This document shows positions 42,238 to 49,604 of a stretch of DNA of 64,000 nt, in pieces. Every line of letters begins with the position of its first letter. The first letter of the stretch is position 1. The position numbers were made by a program, and so were the translations under genes. Location of the stretch: NCBI RefSeq assembly GCF_058153355.1, contig NZ_CM177019.1; one strand, given 5' to 3'. The notes under the pieces were generated by a model. That model saw nothing but the letters and a program-made list of their open reading frames with translations. It searched no databases and was not told the origin of the DNA.

Positions 42238-43689
42238 GTGAAAACACTAAATCGTCGCGATTTTCCCGGTGCACAGTATCCAGAACGTATCATTCAGTTT
42301 GGTGAAGGTAACTTCCTGCGCGCCTTTGTTGACTGGCAAATCGATCTCCTGAATGAGCACACCGATCTGAATTCTGGCGTGGTCGTTGTTCGTCCGATTG
42401 AAACTTCATTCCCGCCGTCATTGAGCACGCAGGATGGTCTGTACACCACCATTATCCGTGGTTTGAATGAGAAGGGGGAGGCGGTCAGCGACGCGCGTCT
42501 GATTCGCTCGGTTAATCGTGAAATCAGCGTCTACAGTGAATACGATGAATTCCTGAAACTGGCGCACAACCCGGAAATGCGCTTTGTTTTCTCTAACACC
42601 ACCGAAGCGGGTATCAGCTACCATGCGGGCGATAAATTCGATGACGCGCCAGCGGTAAGTTATCCGGCAAAACTGACCCGTCTGCTGTTCGAACGTTTTA
42701 GCCATTTCAACGGAGCGCAGGATAAAGGTTGGATCATCATCCCATGTGAACTGATCGACTATAACGGCGATGCACTGCGTGAACTGGTGCTGCGCTACGC
42801 GCAAGAGTGGGCACTACCAGAAGCATTTATTCAATGGCTGGATCAGGCTAACAGTTTCTGTTCTACGCTGGTGGACCGTATCGTTACCGGTTATCCGCGT
42901 GATGAAGTGGCTAAACTGGAAGAAGAACTGGGTTATCACGATGGTTTCCTCGACACCGCTGAACACTTTTACCTGTTTGTGATTCAGGGGCCGAAATCCT
43001 TAGCGACTGAGCTGCGTCTGGACAAATATCCGCTCAACGTGCTGATTGTTGACGATATTAAACCGTATAAAGAGCGCAAAGTGGCAATCCTCAACGGTGC
43101 ACACACGGCGCTGGTGCCGGTGGCGTTCCAGGCAGGGCTGGATACTGTAGGTGAAGCGATGAACGATGCTGAAATTTGTGCATTCGTTGAAAAAGCCATC
43201 TACGAAGAGATTATTCCGGTACTGGATTTGCCTCGTGATGAACTGGAATCTTTCGCCAGTGCAGTCACCGGACGTTTCCGTAATCCGTACATCAAGCATC
43301 AGCTGCTGTCTATCGCGCTTAACGGTATGACCAAGTTCCGCACCCGTATCCTGCCGCAGCTGCTGGCAGGGCAGAAGGCAAACGGCACACTTCCGGCGCG
43401 CCTTACTTTCGCATTAGCGGCATTGATTGCGTTTTATCGCGGTGAGCGTAACGGAGAAACATATCCGGTACAGGACGATGCCCACTGGCTGGAACGTTAT
43501 CAGCAACTCTGGAGCCAGCATCGTGACCGTGTTATCGGCACCCAGGAACTGGTTGCTATTGTGTTGGCTGAAAAAGATCACTGGGAGCAGGACCTGACGC
43601 AAGTGCCTGGTCTGGTCGAGCTGGTTGCTAATGACCTGGATGCGATTCTCGAAAAAGGAATGCGCGAAGCTGTACGTCCGTTGTGCTAA
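42238..43689 (+). CDS. uxaB: Altronate oxidoreductase UxaB, GTG start
   Basis: 483-aa mannitol dehydrogenase family ORF. Confidence 0.9.
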
Positions 43690-43696
43690 TACTCTG

Positions 43697-43726
43697 AACC
43701 CGGTTTCGACCGGGTTTCTTATTTCA
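43697..43726 (+). terminator. Intrinsic terminator after uxaB
   Basis: Hairpin aacccggtttcgaccgggtt followed by a T-rich run. Confidence 0.55.
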
Positions 43727-43885
43727 CTATATTAGTTACAACATCCTATGTGCCTTTATCATTAACAGGTGCCACATGCAGCACCTGTTAATGTTGTAAG
43801 CTTATAGGTAATTTGTAAGTAGTGTCTTAAGAATGTGATCGTAATCACGTTTAATAGGGCGACTTTTACACGCCTGAAGATAACC

Positions 43886-44800
43886 ATGATCGTTCGTCCA
43901 CAACAACACTGGCTGCGCCGTATTTTTGTCTGGCACGGTTCAGTATTATCCAAGATATCCTCACGCTTACTACTTAATTTTCTCTTTTCTACTGCCGTTA
44001 TTTTCATGCTGCCCTGGTACACGCATCTGGGTATTAAATTTACCCTCGCACCATTCAGCATTCTCGGTGTCGCCATCGCCATTTTTCTTGGTTTTCGTAA
44101 TAATGCCGGGTACGCCCGTTACGTTGAAGCGCGAAAACTTTGGGGGCAGTTGATGATTGCCTCACGGTCGTTACTGCGCGAGGTAAAAACGACATTGCCG
44201 GATTCGGCAAGTGTAAGGGAGTTTGCACGGCTGCAAATCGCCTTCGCCCACTGTTTACGCATGACATTACGCAAACAACCACAGGCGGAAGTGCTGGCAC
44301 ATTATCTCAAGACTGAAGATCTTCAGCGTGTACTGGCTTCAAACACTCCAGCTAACCGTATTTTGTTGATAATGGGGGAGTGGTTGGCGGTTCAGCGACG
44401 CAATGGACAGCTTTCAGATATCCTGTTTATTAGCCTCAACGATCGGCTTAACGATATTTCAGCGGTTCTGGCAGGCTGCGAGCGCATTGCCTACACGCCA
44501 ATTCCCTTTGCCTACACCCTGATTTTGCATCGTACCGTTTATCTGTTTTGTATCATGCTGCCGTTCGCGCTGGTCGTGGACCTGCATTACATGACGCCAT
44601 TTATCTCTGTGCTGATTTCCTACACTTTTATTTCGCTGGATTGTCTGGCGGAAGAGCTGGAAGATCCGTTCGGTACTGAAAACAATGATTTACCGCTGGA
44701 TGCCATCTGCAACGCTATTGAAATTGACCTGTTACAGATGAACGATGAAACAGAAATTCCAGCAAAAATTCTTCCCGATCGTCATTACCAGCTGACGTAA
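43886..44800 (+). CDS. yneE: Bestrophin-like membrane protein YneE
   Basis: Start trimmed to MIVRPQQHWLRRIF. Confidence 0.8.
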   Translation: MIVRPQQHWLRRIFVWHGSVLSKISSRLLLNFLFSTAVIFMLPWYTHLGIKFTLAPFSILGVAIAIFLGFRNNAGYARYVEARKLWGQLMIASRSLLREVKTTLPDSASVREFARLQIAFAHCLRMTLRKQPQAEVLAHYLKTEDLQRVLASNTPANRILLIMGEWLAVQRRNGQLSDILFISLNDRLNDISAVLAGCERIAYTPIPFAYTLILHRTVYLFCIMLPFALVVDLHYMTPFISVLISYTFISLDCLAEELEDPFGTENNDLPLDAICNAIEIDLLQMNDETEIPAKILPDRHYQLT

Positions 44801-44803
44801 TAT

Positions 44804-45562
44804 TTACTCCGTACGCCGGGCAACAATAAACAGACGCGGAAATGCCAGCAGTATCTGTCCGTTCTCTTGCAGTGGATACTGCTCTTCCAGCATCTGATGG
44901 TAGCGCGTAAGAAAATGCTGCTGTTCGCTCTCGGTCAGATCCTGTAACCACGGACGTAATCCAGTGGCGGTCACCCAGTCAATAATCGCCTGGTGCGACG
45001 GCATCTGGTGATAGTAAGTGGTTCGCCAGATATCGACCTCGCATCCGGCTTCACTCAAAATATCGTAGTAAGCATGAACGCCAGCCAGCGGCTCACGCCC
45101 GCGATCCGGGTAGTTTTGTTCCCAGGCGACTTCGCGCATGAGCACATGGGTAGGCTCCAGCCAGTTATCCGGCATTTGTACCGCCAGCACGCCCTGCGGA
45201 CTGAGTAACGAAACCAGATGAGGGAACAGTTCGTAATGGTCGGGCAGCCATTGCAGCGAGGCATTAGCAAAAATCAGATCGAGTGCCTGTTCCGGTTGCC
45301 AGTTGCGGATGTCTGCTTCCACGAACTGGCAGTCTGGCAAAGCACTGCGCGCTTCAGCAATCATCGCCGGAGACGAGTCGATGCCTGTTATCCTGGCCGC
45401 AGGCCAACGTTGATGCAGCAGGGCGGTGCTGTTACCTGGGCCACAGCCAAGATCGGCAACGTATTCGATATTCTCCAGCGGCACTCTGGCAAGCAGCTCC
45501 ACCGCCGGACGCGATCGTTCAGCGGCAAAGTGCAGATATAAAGAGGGGTTCCAGTCAGACAT
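44804..45562 (-). CDS. tam: Trans-aconitate 2-methyltransferase Tam
   Basis: SAM-binding motif [17 protein letters not shown] ribosome-binding site upstream. Confidence 0.9.
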
Positions 45563-45650
45563 ATTTTTACTCCCGTCAGCGCGTTACCCCTAGTGTAGAT
45601 AAAACTGTTGACATCCTCCACGCCCTGAAGGACGTGGATCCCTGCTACGT

Positions 45651-46859
45651 TCAGGCTGTCGCCTGAATCATTTCGGTGGGTTCCTGCTTCAACGGGCGGC
45701 CTGACTGCACCATCCCTCCACAGGCAAGAACGGCGTGCCCCGCCGCTAAAATGTTACGAGCGCCGTTCACATCGGCGTTCGCTGTGTATCCACATACCTG
45801 GCATCTGAATTTACTTTGTGACAGACGATTTTCTTTCGCTGTATGACCACAGCACGCGCAACGCTGGCTTGTGTACGCTGGCGGAACAGCAAGCACCTGA
45901 CCACCACGCCAGAGCTGCTTGTACTCAAGCTGGCGGCGCATTTCATACCAGCCCTGATCCAGTATCGAACGGTTTAAACCTGATTTTGCCCGGACATTGC
46001 GCCCCGGCGGGCTGACCGTACCCGCTGCTGACTTTGACATGTTACTGACCTTCAAATCCTCAATGACTATCATTGCGTGGTTTTTGCTGACGGTCGTTGT
46101 GACTTTATGAAGGTAGTCCCTGCGGATATTTGCGATACGGGAATGCAGTCGCTGTATTTTGCGTTTCTGCTTCTGCCAGTTATTGCTGAATTTGACCTTG
46201 CGGCTTAACTGTCGCTGAAGTCTCGCCAGCGTCTTCTGGTTTTTCTGAAAACTGTTTACAGGCTCAAAGACTGTGCCATCTGACAGCATGGCGAGTTTAG
46301 CCACGCCAGCATCCAGCCCGATCATTGATGCTGAAGGGTGAACCGGAGTGGATACTTCACTTTCTGTCTGAATACTGATGTACCACTTACCGCAGGACTG
46401 GCTGACAGTGACATTTTTCACAACCCCCGTGACCTGACGGCTGTTCCGGTAGCGCATCCAGCCCAGTTTCGGCAGAAAAATACGGCTGTTTTCCTGATCG
46501 AGCTTAACGCCCTGCGGGTAGCGGAATGCATCATTCTGTCCCCGCGTTTTGAATCGGGGAAAAGCAGCCCGCTTCTGGAAGAAGTTTTTGTAAGCCCGCT
46601 CAAGGTCTTTCAGTGACTGTTGCAATGGCTGTGAGGGCGAATCTTTAAGCCATTGCGTTTCAGTGGCGTTTTTCCACTCAACCAGCCAGGAAGCCATTTT
46701 CCCGTAAGGGATGTATTTATTACCGGCCTCATGATTCTCATTCTGACGTGCCAGAGCACGATTGAAAACGAAACGACATGCGCCTGCGAAGCGCCTCATT
46801 TCACGCTCCTGTTGACCACCGGGTCTTAACTGGAATTTAAATGCCTGTAGTCGTTTCAC
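45651..46859 (-). CDS. tnpB: TnpB (OrfB) RNA-guided endonuclease of the IS200/IS605 family, apparently intact
   Basis: 402 aa; C-terminal zinc finger CACCGH...CQVCG and RuvC-III motif [10 protein letters not shown]. Confidence 0.85.
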
Positions 46860-46866
46860 AGGTCAA

Positions 46867-47340
46867 ATGATACTTTGGTCTGTGAAAAAAGAAACCGATA
46901 TCCGGCGTGGAAGGCATTGTGTTTTCCTGATGCATGTTCACCTGGTCTTTGTCCCAAATACCGACGCCAGATTTTTGACCATGACGCGACAGAAAAACTA
47001 CGCACTTACTTTTCAAATGTATGTGCTGATTTTGAAGCTGAACTGGTTGAAATGGATGGCGAACCAGATCACGTCCATTTGTTAATTAACTATCCTCCCA
47101 AACTGGCGATATCCAGTCTGGTAAACAGCCTCAAAGGCGTATCGGGTAGGTTACTGCGACGAGATCGACCAGATATTGCAGTCAGGTATTACTACAAAGG
47201 CGTTTTGTGGAGTCCTGGCTATTTTGCCAGTAGCTGCGGAGGTGCGCCAATATCCGTCATCCGCCAATACATTGAACAACAGCAAACACCTGGTCAGGTG
47301 GAAAACCGCGCCTTATATCCCCGCCCTGAAGGACGGGGTT
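46867..47340 (+). pseudogene. tnpA: IS200-type Y1 (HuH) transposase TnpA, apparently frameshifted near its N-terminus
   Basis: First beta-strand motif MHVHLVFVP lies in the ATG frame (46867) but PKYRRQIF, the HuH motif DHVHLL and the catalytic region YIEQQ continue in the +2 frame (46875, TTG). Confidence 0.55.
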
Positions 47341-47365
47341 TTACGGCGCACCGGATAAATTCGCC

Positions 47366-47656
47366 TCACGGCATCAATCCATTGAACAGACGTTTTTTAC
47401 GCGGCCCGGTCATTAAAGATTCCAGTTTTGCGACACAGGTTTTGTAGTGGGGCGTGGTTTTATGGAACGCCACTGCGTCTTCATCTTTATAGGCTTCATA
47501 GATATAAAAGCGCGAATTCACTTCCGGGTCCTGTAAGACATCGAAGCGCAAATTGCCTTCTTCCTGTACCGAGCCCAGGTGGTTCTGGCGAAAAACTTCG
47601 ATAAACTCGTCAACCTTGTCTTCATGAACGTTAATTTCAACCAGTGTGACGTGCAT
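47366..47656 (-). CDS. lsrG: AI-2 degrading protein LsrG
   Basis: 96-aa ORF; last gene of the lsr operon. Confidence 0.9.
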
Positions 47657-47679
47657 AATTCTTCTCCTTAAATCCGCAG

Positions 47680-48555
47680 TTACTGTTTTTCACTCAGATA
47701 GAGTTCATATGCCCGATCAGCCGTTTCGTTATGGTGTACCACCGCCTGTACGGCTTTCATCATCGCCACCGGATGGTCAGACTGGAAAATATTACGCCCC
47801 ATATCCACACCAGAAGCGCCCTGATCGATAGCCTGCCAGCACATTTCCAGCGCCTCGCGCTCCGGTAATTTTTTACCGCCAGCAATAACAATGGGTACCG
47901 GACATCCGGCAACAATCCGTTCAAAACCTTTATCGACATAATAAGTTTTGATAATCTGCGCCCCCATTTCAGCGGCGATTCGGGTAGCCAGCGAGAAATA
48001 ACGTTGGTCGCGCACCATATCTTTGCCCACGCCAGTGACTGCCATGGTCGGCATTCCTACTTTCATTCCGGCATCGACCAGCTGAATAATATTTTTAATC
48101 GACTGATGTTCATATTCACTGCCGATATAAACCTGCGCTGCCACCGCGCAACTGTTCAGGCGCACGGCGTCATCCATCGATAACGCCACGGCTTCATTAC
48201 TTAATTCCGCCAGAATAGAGTTCGCACCAGACGCCCGCAGTACTACCGGCTTATTGGTCGCCGGGGGGACTACGCTGCGCAAAATGCCGCGCGTACACAT
48301 TAATACATCGGCATGTTCAAACAGCGGGGCGATATTTATATCAATGCGTTCAAGTCCGGTAGTCGGCCCCTGAAAATAACCATGGTCAAAGGCCAGCATC
48401 ACGGTTTTACCCGTTTTCGGATTAAATATCCGTGATAAGCGTGACTGCATTCCCCAATCCAGCGCACCGCAACCTTTCAGGGTAAAAGGGATATTTTGTT
48501 GCGGTTGATCGGTGCGAAAATCTTTACCATCTTTAATATCGTCTAAATCTGCCAT
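47680..48555 (-). CDS. lsrF: Aldolase-family thiolase LsrF
   Basis: 291-aa ORF. Confidence 0.9.
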
Positions 48556-48581
48556 AACGTACTCCGGTTAAGTAATGCACA

Positions 48582-49604
48582 TCAGAAATCGTATTTGCCG
48601 ATATTCTCTTTGTTGAATATCACGCGCTCCGGTAACAGTACGATGCCATTACCATCCGCTTCGTAGTCATAGCCCTGAACGCTGTTTGGCGAGACTTCAA
48701 CCTGACCTACGCCCTGAATATTCAGCTTGTCGCCCGTTTTCATTGATCCTTTTTTCAATAATGCATCCGCGACATAAACTGAAATTTTGCCTTGCTGAAC
48801 CACATCCCACAGGCCAAATTCTTTCACCGTGCCGCGCTCTACATACGGACGCATCACGTTTGGCGTACTGAATCCGACAATCGCAACTTTGTCATTTTTC
48901 AGGTTTTCTGCGGCTTGTGCGGCAGCGGGCAGGGCGTTGGCGTCCGGGGCGATAATGGCGTCGAGATCGCTATAGGCTTTTAATATTCCTTCTGCGGTTT
49001 GTAACGATTTAGTGGCATCGTTATAGCCAAACTGCGTAGTGACAATTTCCCAGCCTGGATGGTCTTTGGCGATTTTCGCTTTCGCCTCTTTCACCCACTG
49101 GTTTTGGTCCATAACGGTGGGGCTTGAGTAGAAAAACGCGACTTTGGCTTTGTCTTTATTCACCTGACGCGCCGCCATATCCACCAACATACCTCCCAAC
49201 TGGGCGGGCGTTCCCTGATTAATGTAGTAAGAGCGGCACTCCGGTTTGGTATCAGAGTCCCAGGTCAGCACTCTCACGCCACGTTGCATGGCGCGTTTCA
49301 GTGCCGGACACAAGCCATCAGGCGAAACCGCAGAAACGATAATGGCGTTATACCCCTGATTGACGAAGTTATTAATCAACTGTACCTGACCAGAAACACT
49401 GGGTTCTGTCGGCCCGTCGTAGGTCACATCAACGCCCAGCTCTTTACCCGCTTGTTGTGCGCCGTTGCCACCGCTGGTAAAAAATCCCACGCCAACCAGT
49501 TTGGGAATAAAAGCAATACGCTCTGCGGCCTGCACATTCATAGAGATTGCGGCAATGCCAAGAGCGCTAAGTAAGGCGATTTTCTTAAAGCGATGAAGTG
49601 TCAT
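48582..49604 (-). CDS. lsrB: AI-2 periplasmic binding protein LsrB
   Basis: 340 aa with signal peptide. Confidence 0.9.

Follow-up and report, generated by a model that had tools for sequence, protein, structure and literature searches.

The insertion between lsrG and tam in the window, the whole 64,000-nucleotide stretch of DNA analysed here (RefSeq assembly GCF_058153355.1, contig NZ_CM177019.1), is very probably best explained as an ordinary polymorphic IS609 insertion in the lsrG–tam spacer that carries the standard TnpB/omega-RNA layout and leaves the tam promoter in place. IS609 insertions of this sort belong to an ordinary and already known kind of element. IS609 is an insertion sequence that is annotated in Escherichia coli K-12, is recognised by PGAP in relatives and works in a known way.

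Identity, ends and genes of the IS609 copy

The element and its parts are as follows (positions are those of the window; the basis of each assignment is given in brackets).

45608-47354, minus strand (as top strand of the element): IS609, IS200/IS605 family, 1747 bp (K-12 IS609 match, four insertions, empty site)
47355-47358, minus strand: 5'-TTAT, the target tetranucleotide immediately 5' to the left end and the expected motif of TnpB recognition (shared by four insertions)
47319-47338, minus strand: left subterminal hairpin, CCCCGTCC-TTCA-GGGCGGGG (sequence; 12-mer in common with the right-end hairpin)
45618-45637, minus strand: right subterminal hairpin, CCACGTCC-TTCA-GGGCGTGG (sequence; homologue alignments)
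45651-46859, minus strand: tnpB, intact, 402 aa (open reading frame list; Pfam; alignment to ISDra2 TnpB structures)
46867-47353, plus strand: tnpA (Y1/HUH transposase) pseudogene (Pfam Y1_Tnp, E 2.9e-37; alignment with other copies)

The window copy is identical to K-12 IS609 (NC_000913.3 1503161-1504908, annotated as 'insertion sequence:IS609') at 1711 of 1748 aligned positions (97.9%), and the two share the termini CCGGTG...GGATGTCAA. In the window, the left end at 47354 starts with CCGGTGCG and the right end at 45608 finishes in GGATGTCAA. TTAT precedes CCGGTGCG in all four insertions compared (window, lsrG/tam; VCSW5, gltX/yfeD; EC43, yedK; K-12, ydcL/ydcO), and the right end is GGATGTCAA in 4/4, with divergence thereafter. 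The sequence-only reading of this DNA had pointed to a comparison with IS-free strains, and the IS-free allele of FDAARGOS_497 supplies it, consisting of GAATTTAT followed directly by CAGTTTTATCTACACTAGGGG, which are the window flanks on either side of the element placed end to end without a duplicated base. By this comparison there is no target-site duplication at the lsrG–tam IS609. The lsrG–tam spacer of K-12 is 56 bp long, and alignment of the window junctions to K-12 puts the insertion inside it. An alternative placement of the ends, TTATC/CGGTG...GTCAAC, is compatible with the empty site, yet is excluded by the varying base after GTCAA (C, T, G and C in the four insertions) and by the K-12 annotation; the boundary CCGGTG...GTCAA is therefore preferred.

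Members of the IS200/IS605 family are single-strand HUH transposons that insert 3' of a short motif without target duplication, and the hallmarks of the family are present here, with hairpins at both ends and neither terminal inverted repeats nor a target-site duplication. Both subterminal hairpins contain the 12-mer CCCTGAAGGACG, which occurs twice in the window where chance would give 0.12 matches. On the minus strand the hairpins include a G.T wobble where the plus strand would carry a C.A mismatch, which fits the minus strand as the active strand. The invariant sequence AGGATGTCAA (45617-45608) lies directly 3' of the right-end hairpin, and TCAA (45611-45608) forms the last bases of the element. 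IS608 of Helicobacter pylori likewise has a tetranucleotide target at its left end, TCAA at its right end, subterminal hairpins and no target duplication, but its target is TTAC and its tnpA and tnpB are co-directional, whereas the window IS609 follows TTAT and its genes are divergent, as in IS605.

The product of tnpB, whose TGA stop lies at 45653-45651, contains three Pfam domains, all above their cut-offs: PF12323 (HTH_OrfB_IS605), PF01385 (OrfB_IS605, RuvC) and PF07282 (Cas12f1-like_TNB, zinc ribbon). It aligned over its full length to the ISDra2 TnpB structures 8bf8, 8exa and 8h1j (E 1e-55), with identical residues at the positions of ISDra2 D191, E278 and D361 and with both CxxC pairs kept. 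With the D/E/D triad and the zinc-finger cysteines in place, TnpB is predicted to be nuclease-competent. The two proteins share a fold family and catalytic residues at about one third protein identity (alignment read by eye), and the window copy appears to follow the logic of ISDra2, in which the 3' end of tnpB and the right end provide the scaffold, the flank provides the guide, and the transposon-associated motif (TAM) is the target motif. In contrast, the TAM of ISDra2 is TTGAT rather than TTAT, and tnpA in the window is divergent from tnpB rather than co-directional.

The tnpA gene has decayed. Relative to the copies in EC43 and UTME-7, it has a 1-nt deletion at 46953/46954, where one A is missing (GTCACC to GTCCC), and the resulting frameshift separates the HUH part from the remaining protein. 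None of the copies examined has an in-element stop for the tnpA frame, which in each of them exits through the left end (in the window it runs to 47447); this is probably why PGAP flags such genes as 'missing C-terminus'. The other tnpA copies examined were flagged incomplete and one is additionally frameshifted, while tnpB stays intact at 402 aa in the window and in many other copies where tnpA decays. The K-12 element is similar in its termini, the TTAT on its left flank, its divergent tnpA and tnpB with start codons 7 nt apart, its 402-aa TnpB (insQ/tnpB, b1432) and its decayed tnpA (pseudogene yncK). It differs in its site (ydcL/ydcO rather than lsrG/tam) and therefore in its flank-derived guide, and the 1-nt tnpA deletion is the window copy's own. 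In the proposed course of events, IS609 would have entered 3' of TTAT without target duplication and tnpA would have decayed later by frameshift, with tnpB left intact.

Expression of tam beside the insertion

The host genes and signals around the element are listed here.

47366-47656, minus strand: lsrG, intact, 96 aa (open reading frame list; Pfam ABM)
44804-45562, minus strand: tam (trans-aconitate 2-methyltransferase), intact, 252 aa (open reading frames; Pfam SAM methyltransferases; annotation in relatives)
45570-45574, minus strand: tam Shine-Dalgarno sequence, GGGAG (sequence)
45592-45599, minus strand: candidate sigma-S-type -10, TCTACACT (conservation; motif read by eye; inferred start site)

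Around IS609 the minus strand carries lsrB, lsrF, lsrG, tnpB and tam, with the plus-strand tnpA between lsrG and tnpB. The stop codon of lsrG is 7 nt from the TTAT target, and the right end of IS609 is 45 nt upstream of the tam ATG (45562-45560). This start codon and the GGGAG had already been picked out in the sequence-only reading, and both are read in the sequence on the minus strand. The flank that it placed directly upstream of the ribosome-binding site does adjoin it, but measures 33 nt (45607-45575) to the Shine-Dalgarno sequence rather than 25-30 nt. Similarly, the insertion of 1.8 kb that it described between lsrG and tam is there, with an exact size of 1747 bp, and its convergent gene corresponds to the frameshifted tnpA on the plus strand, whereas tnpB shares the orientation of lsrG and tam.

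The same reading held that the insertion cuts tam off from the lsr operon and that tam expression is probably changed. Taken further, this would mean that the insertion rewires tam, with AI-2/LsrR/CRP control lost, the promoter damaged or replaced, and tam either silent or driven by read-through from IS609, an outcome that we regard as unlikely. In its favour, lsrACDBFG-tam is listed as one transcription unit (PMC8085971), the lsrG–tam adjacency is broken by 1747 bp, and with the element 45 nt from the ATG the inferred promoter has lost its native DNA beyond about -22. In addition, tnpB and tam are on one strand and no terminator was found between the tnpB stop and tam, the weak terminator-like sites between lsrG and tam lying elsewhere, so that read-through from lsr or tnpB into tam is possible. 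However, Maciag et al. 2011 (PMC3141248) report a sigma-S-dependent start site of tam's own, mapped in vitro, and tam occurs without lsr genes in ST131, where it stands beside a divergent hipB and upstream homology extends over only about 105 nt. Strain 83972 is lsr-negative, yet tam is reported to rise there at stationary-phase entry and was not differentially expressed after lsr was added back (PMC12263705). Expression of tam is also strongly RpoS-dependent, about 86-fold in EDL933 (PMC2907692). Further searches of the literature for a tam promoter yielded nothing of use.

Comparison of tam loci points to a promoter on the tam side of the insertion. TACAAT/TACACT, set within TCTACA(A/C)T, is the sole TANNNT in the roughly 105 nt upstream of tam that ST131 keeps (read by eye). 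When one genome per species was scanned, 36 tam loci turned up; only three have lsrG upstream, plus one with a remnant. The motif KCTAYNNT lies 36-39 nt before the tam ATG in 5/5 Escherichia loci and in 17/18 Enterobacter/Lelliottia loci, whatever the upstream gene. From this conservation we infer that TCTACACT, which lies inside the predicted guide region 9 nt downstream of the end of IS609, is the tam -10. E. albertii and E. coli are homologous only from AGTTTYTATCTACA onwards, in essence from where IS609 inserted, with unrelated DNA upstream of this point and the -10 block kept. This suggests, at the level of sequence, that DNA upstream of the insertion point is dispensable for the tam promoter, and unrelated DNA upstream of that point is thus already tolerated in nature.

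The junction itself offers little sign of a new promoter. A sigma-70 scan of 45400-47700 found no minus-strand site near the right end and one weak plus-strand site, and hence no sign that the element brings in a promoter, whether outward-facing or hybrid. TGGAGG, the -35 hexamer that the element contributes, is poor (judged by eye), yet no worse than the native GAGGCG when the hexamers are compared, which also counts against a damaged promoter. Masking of the tam Shine-Dalgarno sequence in a read-through transcript was considered and rejected: the fold has a z-score of -1.5, and the nearby pairing involves tam leader and coding bases with no IS sequence.

Most likely, then, tam keeps its own promoter. 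It would retain its Shine-Dalgarno sequence, its leader and the conserved sigma-S-type -10, and the insertion would replace only the DNA upstream of about -22. What stands of the claim that tam is cut off is the 1747 bp that separates it from lsrG; set against it are the reported sigma-S start, the -10 downstream of the element and the co-directional tnpB. With an RpoS-dependent start reported and a conserved -10 downstream of the element, a probable change in tam expression is not established, and a quantitative effect of the insertion on tam is possible.

Predicted omega RNA scaffold and guide

The predicted RNA features, together with the sub-threshold Rfam matches, are given below.

45608-45752, minus strand: predicted omega-RNA scaffold, comprising the last ~100 nt of tnpB and the right end, with an approximate 5' limit (Rfam, fold, covariation; exact stretch preserved in the tnpB-deleted copy of 2017-02-2CC)
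45650-45667, minus strand: hairpin TTCAGGC-GACA-GCCTGAA, with a 7-bp stem, overlapping the tnpB stop (sequence; MFE folds)
45718-45595, minus strand: HgcC (RF00062) match (Rfam E 1.7e-4, 31.4 bits against a gathering score of 50)
45724-45681, minus strand: RAGATH-18 match (Rfam E 0.033, 28.1 bits, below the gathering score)
45778-45617, minus strand: sot0042 (RF02656) match (Rfam E 0.031, 20.5 bits against a gathering score of 88)
45588-45607, minus strand: predicted guide, the first 16-20 nt of the flank, CAGTTTTATCTACACT(AGGG) (empty-site match; window search)

The predicted scaffold contains two hairpins, one at the tnpB stop codon, as the sequence-only reading had noted, and one at the right end with a UUCA tetraloop. 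An Rfam scan of 5 kb at the E-value level returned three matches in all, which stack on the minus strand over the 3' end of tnpB and the right end, and at the gathering level no family reached its curated threshold. The 145-nt stretch 45752-45608 has a fold z-score of -3.0. Families sot0042 and HgcC have been linked to transcripts that overlap the 3' ends of IS1341-type tnpB genes and bear a UUCA-tetraloop hairpin close to their end, and sense-overlapping transcripts at tnpB 3' ends were reported in E. coli K12 RNA-seq data (Gomes-Filho et al., PMC4615843). The window is like these RNAs in position, strand and the UUCA loop of its right-end hairpin, although the families were built from archaeal sequences and the window scores are sub-threshold.

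Homologues of TnpB from plasmids, at 94% to 54% protein identity, were compared with the window copy. The sequence GGAGGATGTCAA (in one copy GGAGGGTGTCAA) ends the element in 12/12 aligned sequences, and all homologues fold to a 3' architecture of two hairpins, one at the position of the stop codon and one terminal, with differing stem sequences. On the 12-sequence alignment, whose most distant member has 54% protein identity, the RNAalifold covariation term was only -0.02 kcal/mol. As the variable hairpin was misaligned by MAFFT, per-sequence folds and a gap-free alignment of nine close homologues (seven distinct sequences) were used instead. With a structure derived from the window, 92.9% of cells in the gap-free alignment were paired, against 31-42% in slid controls, and three pairs changed on both sides. 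In the stop-codon hairpin of the homologues, pairs 30/54 and 39/46 were changed on both sides, and the wider homologue alignment contains a synonymous G-C to A-U switch at pair 77/83, within the tnpB coding sequence.

These comparisons give modest support for a structured RNA that spans the 3' end of tnpB and the right end. As the terminal hairpin serves TnpA as a DNA signal too, conservation there is no proof of RNA, and the structured region could in principle be only such a signal, a subterminal hairpin with its cleavage site on an inert relic that yields no functional RNA. The frameshift in tnpA, the incomplete state of the other tnpA copies examined, the double use of the terminal hairpin and the sub-threshold Rfam matches would all agree with that reading. 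It is nevertheless improbable, as tnpB has stayed intact at 402 aa in the window and many other copies despite the decay of tnpA, conservation and compensatory changes are not confined to the terminal hairpin but continue upstream within tnpB coding sequence (the synonymous switch among them), and tnpB 3'-end transcripts are on record for K-12. We infer that the window copy makes an omega RNA and where that RNA ends. The last ~100 nt of tnpB and the right end would form the scaffold, and the RNA would run out of the element into the flank. The IS200/IS605 layout of omega RNA and guide that had been proposed for this region agrees with the intact TnpB, the sub-threshold Rfam matches on the expected strand, the TTAT motif and the conserved architecture.

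TnpB systems take their guide from the flank next to the right end and use the transposon target motif as TAM, and the published role of the nuclease is to cut the empty site, so that repair from the occupied copy retains the element. The flank from 45607 downwards reads CAGTTTTATCTACACTAGGG, and a guide of 16-20 nt would extend from 45607 to 45592 or 45588, which leaves 13 nt between its end and the tam Shine-Dalgarno sequence. The TTAT seen at the IS609 left ends in the four insertions agrees with the supplement of PMC12781874, where TTAT is given as the 5' motif of an IS609-type TnpB. TTAT followed by CAGTTTTATCTACACTAGGGG is the IS-free lsrG–tam allele of FDAARGOS_497, whereas in the occupied allele TCAA stands in front of the 20 nt of the guide. 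Since the guide comes from one flank and the TAM lies across the element from it, only the element-free allele (TTAT+CAGTTTTATC...) would be recognisable by the TnpB–omega RNA, and the occupied locus, with TCAA before the target, would be no target for its own RNA. No further guide matches with up to two mismatches were found in the window. The IS609 TnpB–omega RNA would thus cut empty lsrG–tam sites, and repair from an occupied copy would keep the element.

TldR-type regulators have lost the nuclease residues and the transposon ends and are in fixed association with the gene they regulate. It is barely credible that the TnpB–omega RNA has been domesticated as a TldR-like, RNA-guided regulator that binds the tam promoter via its flank-derived guide, as might be read from the overlap of the guide region with the inferred -10 and its end 13 nt from the Shine-Dalgarno sequence, because the catalytic triad is complete and both element ends are intact, unlike in TldR-type exapted regulators, the occupied tam promoter has TCAA instead of the TAM before the guide target, the same element with the same right end occurs at the unrelated sites ydcL/ydcO, gltX/yfeD and yedK, and IS609 lies beside tam in just 31 of 5426 genomes, with no fixed association. 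Most likely the guide serves retention of the element rather than regulation of tam, and its closeness to the tam ribosome-binding site is a by-product of the landing site and no regulatory device.

Distribution and significance

Occupation of the lsrG–tam site by IS609 was found in 31 of 5426 complete E. coli genomes (about 0.6%). Full-length IS609 is present at the same TTAT in 30 complete genomes of the UTME-7 type, which differ from the window by 2.5-3.3% in the flanks and 2.1% in the IS and have the leader variant ...ACAATTGG. In strain 2017-02-2CC the junction between the right end and tam is identical to that of the window (136/136), but about 1019 bp of tnpB has been lost (window 45752-46770). 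Still present in this strain are the left end and tnpA, 89 nt from the 5' end of tnpB, and the final 101 nt of tnpB together with the right end; this last piece is precisely the stretch predicted as omega-RNA scaffold. On the tam side, the flank nearest to that of the window (99.5%) belongs to a genome with an empty site.

Two divergent haplotype groups therefore carry the element at an identical position, the 30 UTME-7-type genomes on the one hand and the window with 2017-02-2CC on the other. They may reflect independent insertions, or one old insertion followed by recombination. With the empty site of the genome closest in its tam-side flank and the scaffold stretch kept in 2017-02-2CC, they could also be read to mean that the guide of IS609 actively maintains the element at the lsrG–tam TTAT, which is a doubtful proposition.

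The locus shows the exact ends, the TTAT target and the predicted guide of one IS609 copy, and its main value lies in correct annotation. For work on lsr/AI-2 or on tam, it draws attention to the few strains, about 0.6% of complete genomes, whose tam and lsrG lie 1.7 kb apart. It also presents a natural E. coli strain with an RNA-guided nuclease whose predicted guide is host promoter and leader sequence. On the doubtful reading of active maintenance, if TnpB from other IS609 copies loads the orphan RNA of 2017-02-2CC, the result would be a guide-only drive against incoming IS-free lsrG–tam alleles, which arrive by recombination, and the guide of such a drive would be a host promoter sequence. 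The occupied, empty and tnpB-deleted alleles of this one site occur naturally and could be used to study TnpB-mediated retention in the native host.

A tnpB-deleted relative and the mosaic relationships of the region

Sequence comparison showed that strain 2017-02-2CC carries the same IS609 insertion as the window, with an identical right end–tam junction, while its tnpB is short by ~1019 bp:

45752-46770, compared with 3844-4030 of L019 (NZ_AP027764.1, strain 2017-02-2CC): the tnpB deletion

This strain has kept the left end, tnpA and the first 89 nt of tnpB. It has also kept precisely the final 101 nt of tnpB together with the right end, the stretch predicted to be the omega-RNA scaffold. 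The deletion breakpoint has a 3-nt microhomology.

When window 43000-48900 was compared with a collection of 5426 complete E. coli genomes, relationships across the region proved mosaic, and none of the 5426 was identical to the window. The tam/yneE/uxaB side shares 99.5% identity with a human-isolate group that includes E200086, but the 45-nt tam leader agrees instead with 2017-02-2CC and with the IS-free allele of FDAARGOS_497.

Organisation and variation of tnpA and tnpB

The two transposon genes are divergent, with only 7 nt between their start codons (46857-46869), and the tnpA frame runs beyond the element:

46859-46857, minus strand: tnpB start codon, GTG
46867-46869, plus strand: tnpA start codon, ATG
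46867-47447, plus strand: tnpA open frame; likewise L004, 219-893

Given this spacing and orientation, the promoter of each gene would have to lie within the coding region of the other. None of the IS609 copies examined has a stop codon for tnpA within the element: the frame exits via the left-end hairpin into whichever flank adjoins it. In the window, the read-out adds 31 codons, which overlap the lsrG 3' end in antisense. The C-terminal tail of TnpA would therefore vary with insertion site.

The tnpA frameshift of the window is due to a 1-nt deletion (46953/46954; L003) that the gltX/yfeD copy of VCSW5 also has. In UTME-7, the copy at the same site lacks this deletion and instead has ATT at the tnpA start-codon position; the deletion is apparently also missing from the copy of 2017-02-2CC, whose tnpA carries no frameshift flag. 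This distribution suggests that the mutation has recurred or that IS copies have exchanged sequence.

The right end and the DNA upstream of tam

On the plus strand, the TGTCAA of the right-end terminus becomes TTGACA (45608-45613), a perfect -35 hexamer. It points towards the interior of IS609, opposite in direction to tnpB and the predicted RNA; no accompanying -10 was seen at 16-18 bp. Some minimum-energy folds pick an alternative terminal hairpin, ACGUCCUUCA/UGGAGGAUGU (45608-45643, minus strand), which competes with the canonical right-end hairpin, takes in bases adjoining the cleavage site and is less well kept among homologues.

In ST131 (L007, 2309-2616), one end of the lsr deletion lies within lsrG, so that ~105 nt remain upstream of tam, beside a divergent hipBA. 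A similar lsrG remnant, 18 codons long, is kept by an Escherichia sp. genome (L027). Among loci L025-L054, those of Enterobacter and Lelliottia share a conserved GC-rich hairpin ~40-75 nt ahead of the tam start codon, for example AGATACCTGCC...GCAGGTATCT. This hairpin resembles a terminator belonging to the upstream gene, and a -10-like motif, GCTATTCT, follows it directly.

The tam-side flank in the window contains a second copy of the IS609 target motif, directly 5' of the inferred tam -10 hexamer:

45598-45601, minus strand: second TTAT, CAGTTTTAT followed by CTACAC, 9 nt from the IS609 right end

This site is a further potential target of IS609; insertion at this point would cut the -10 off from all upstream DNA.
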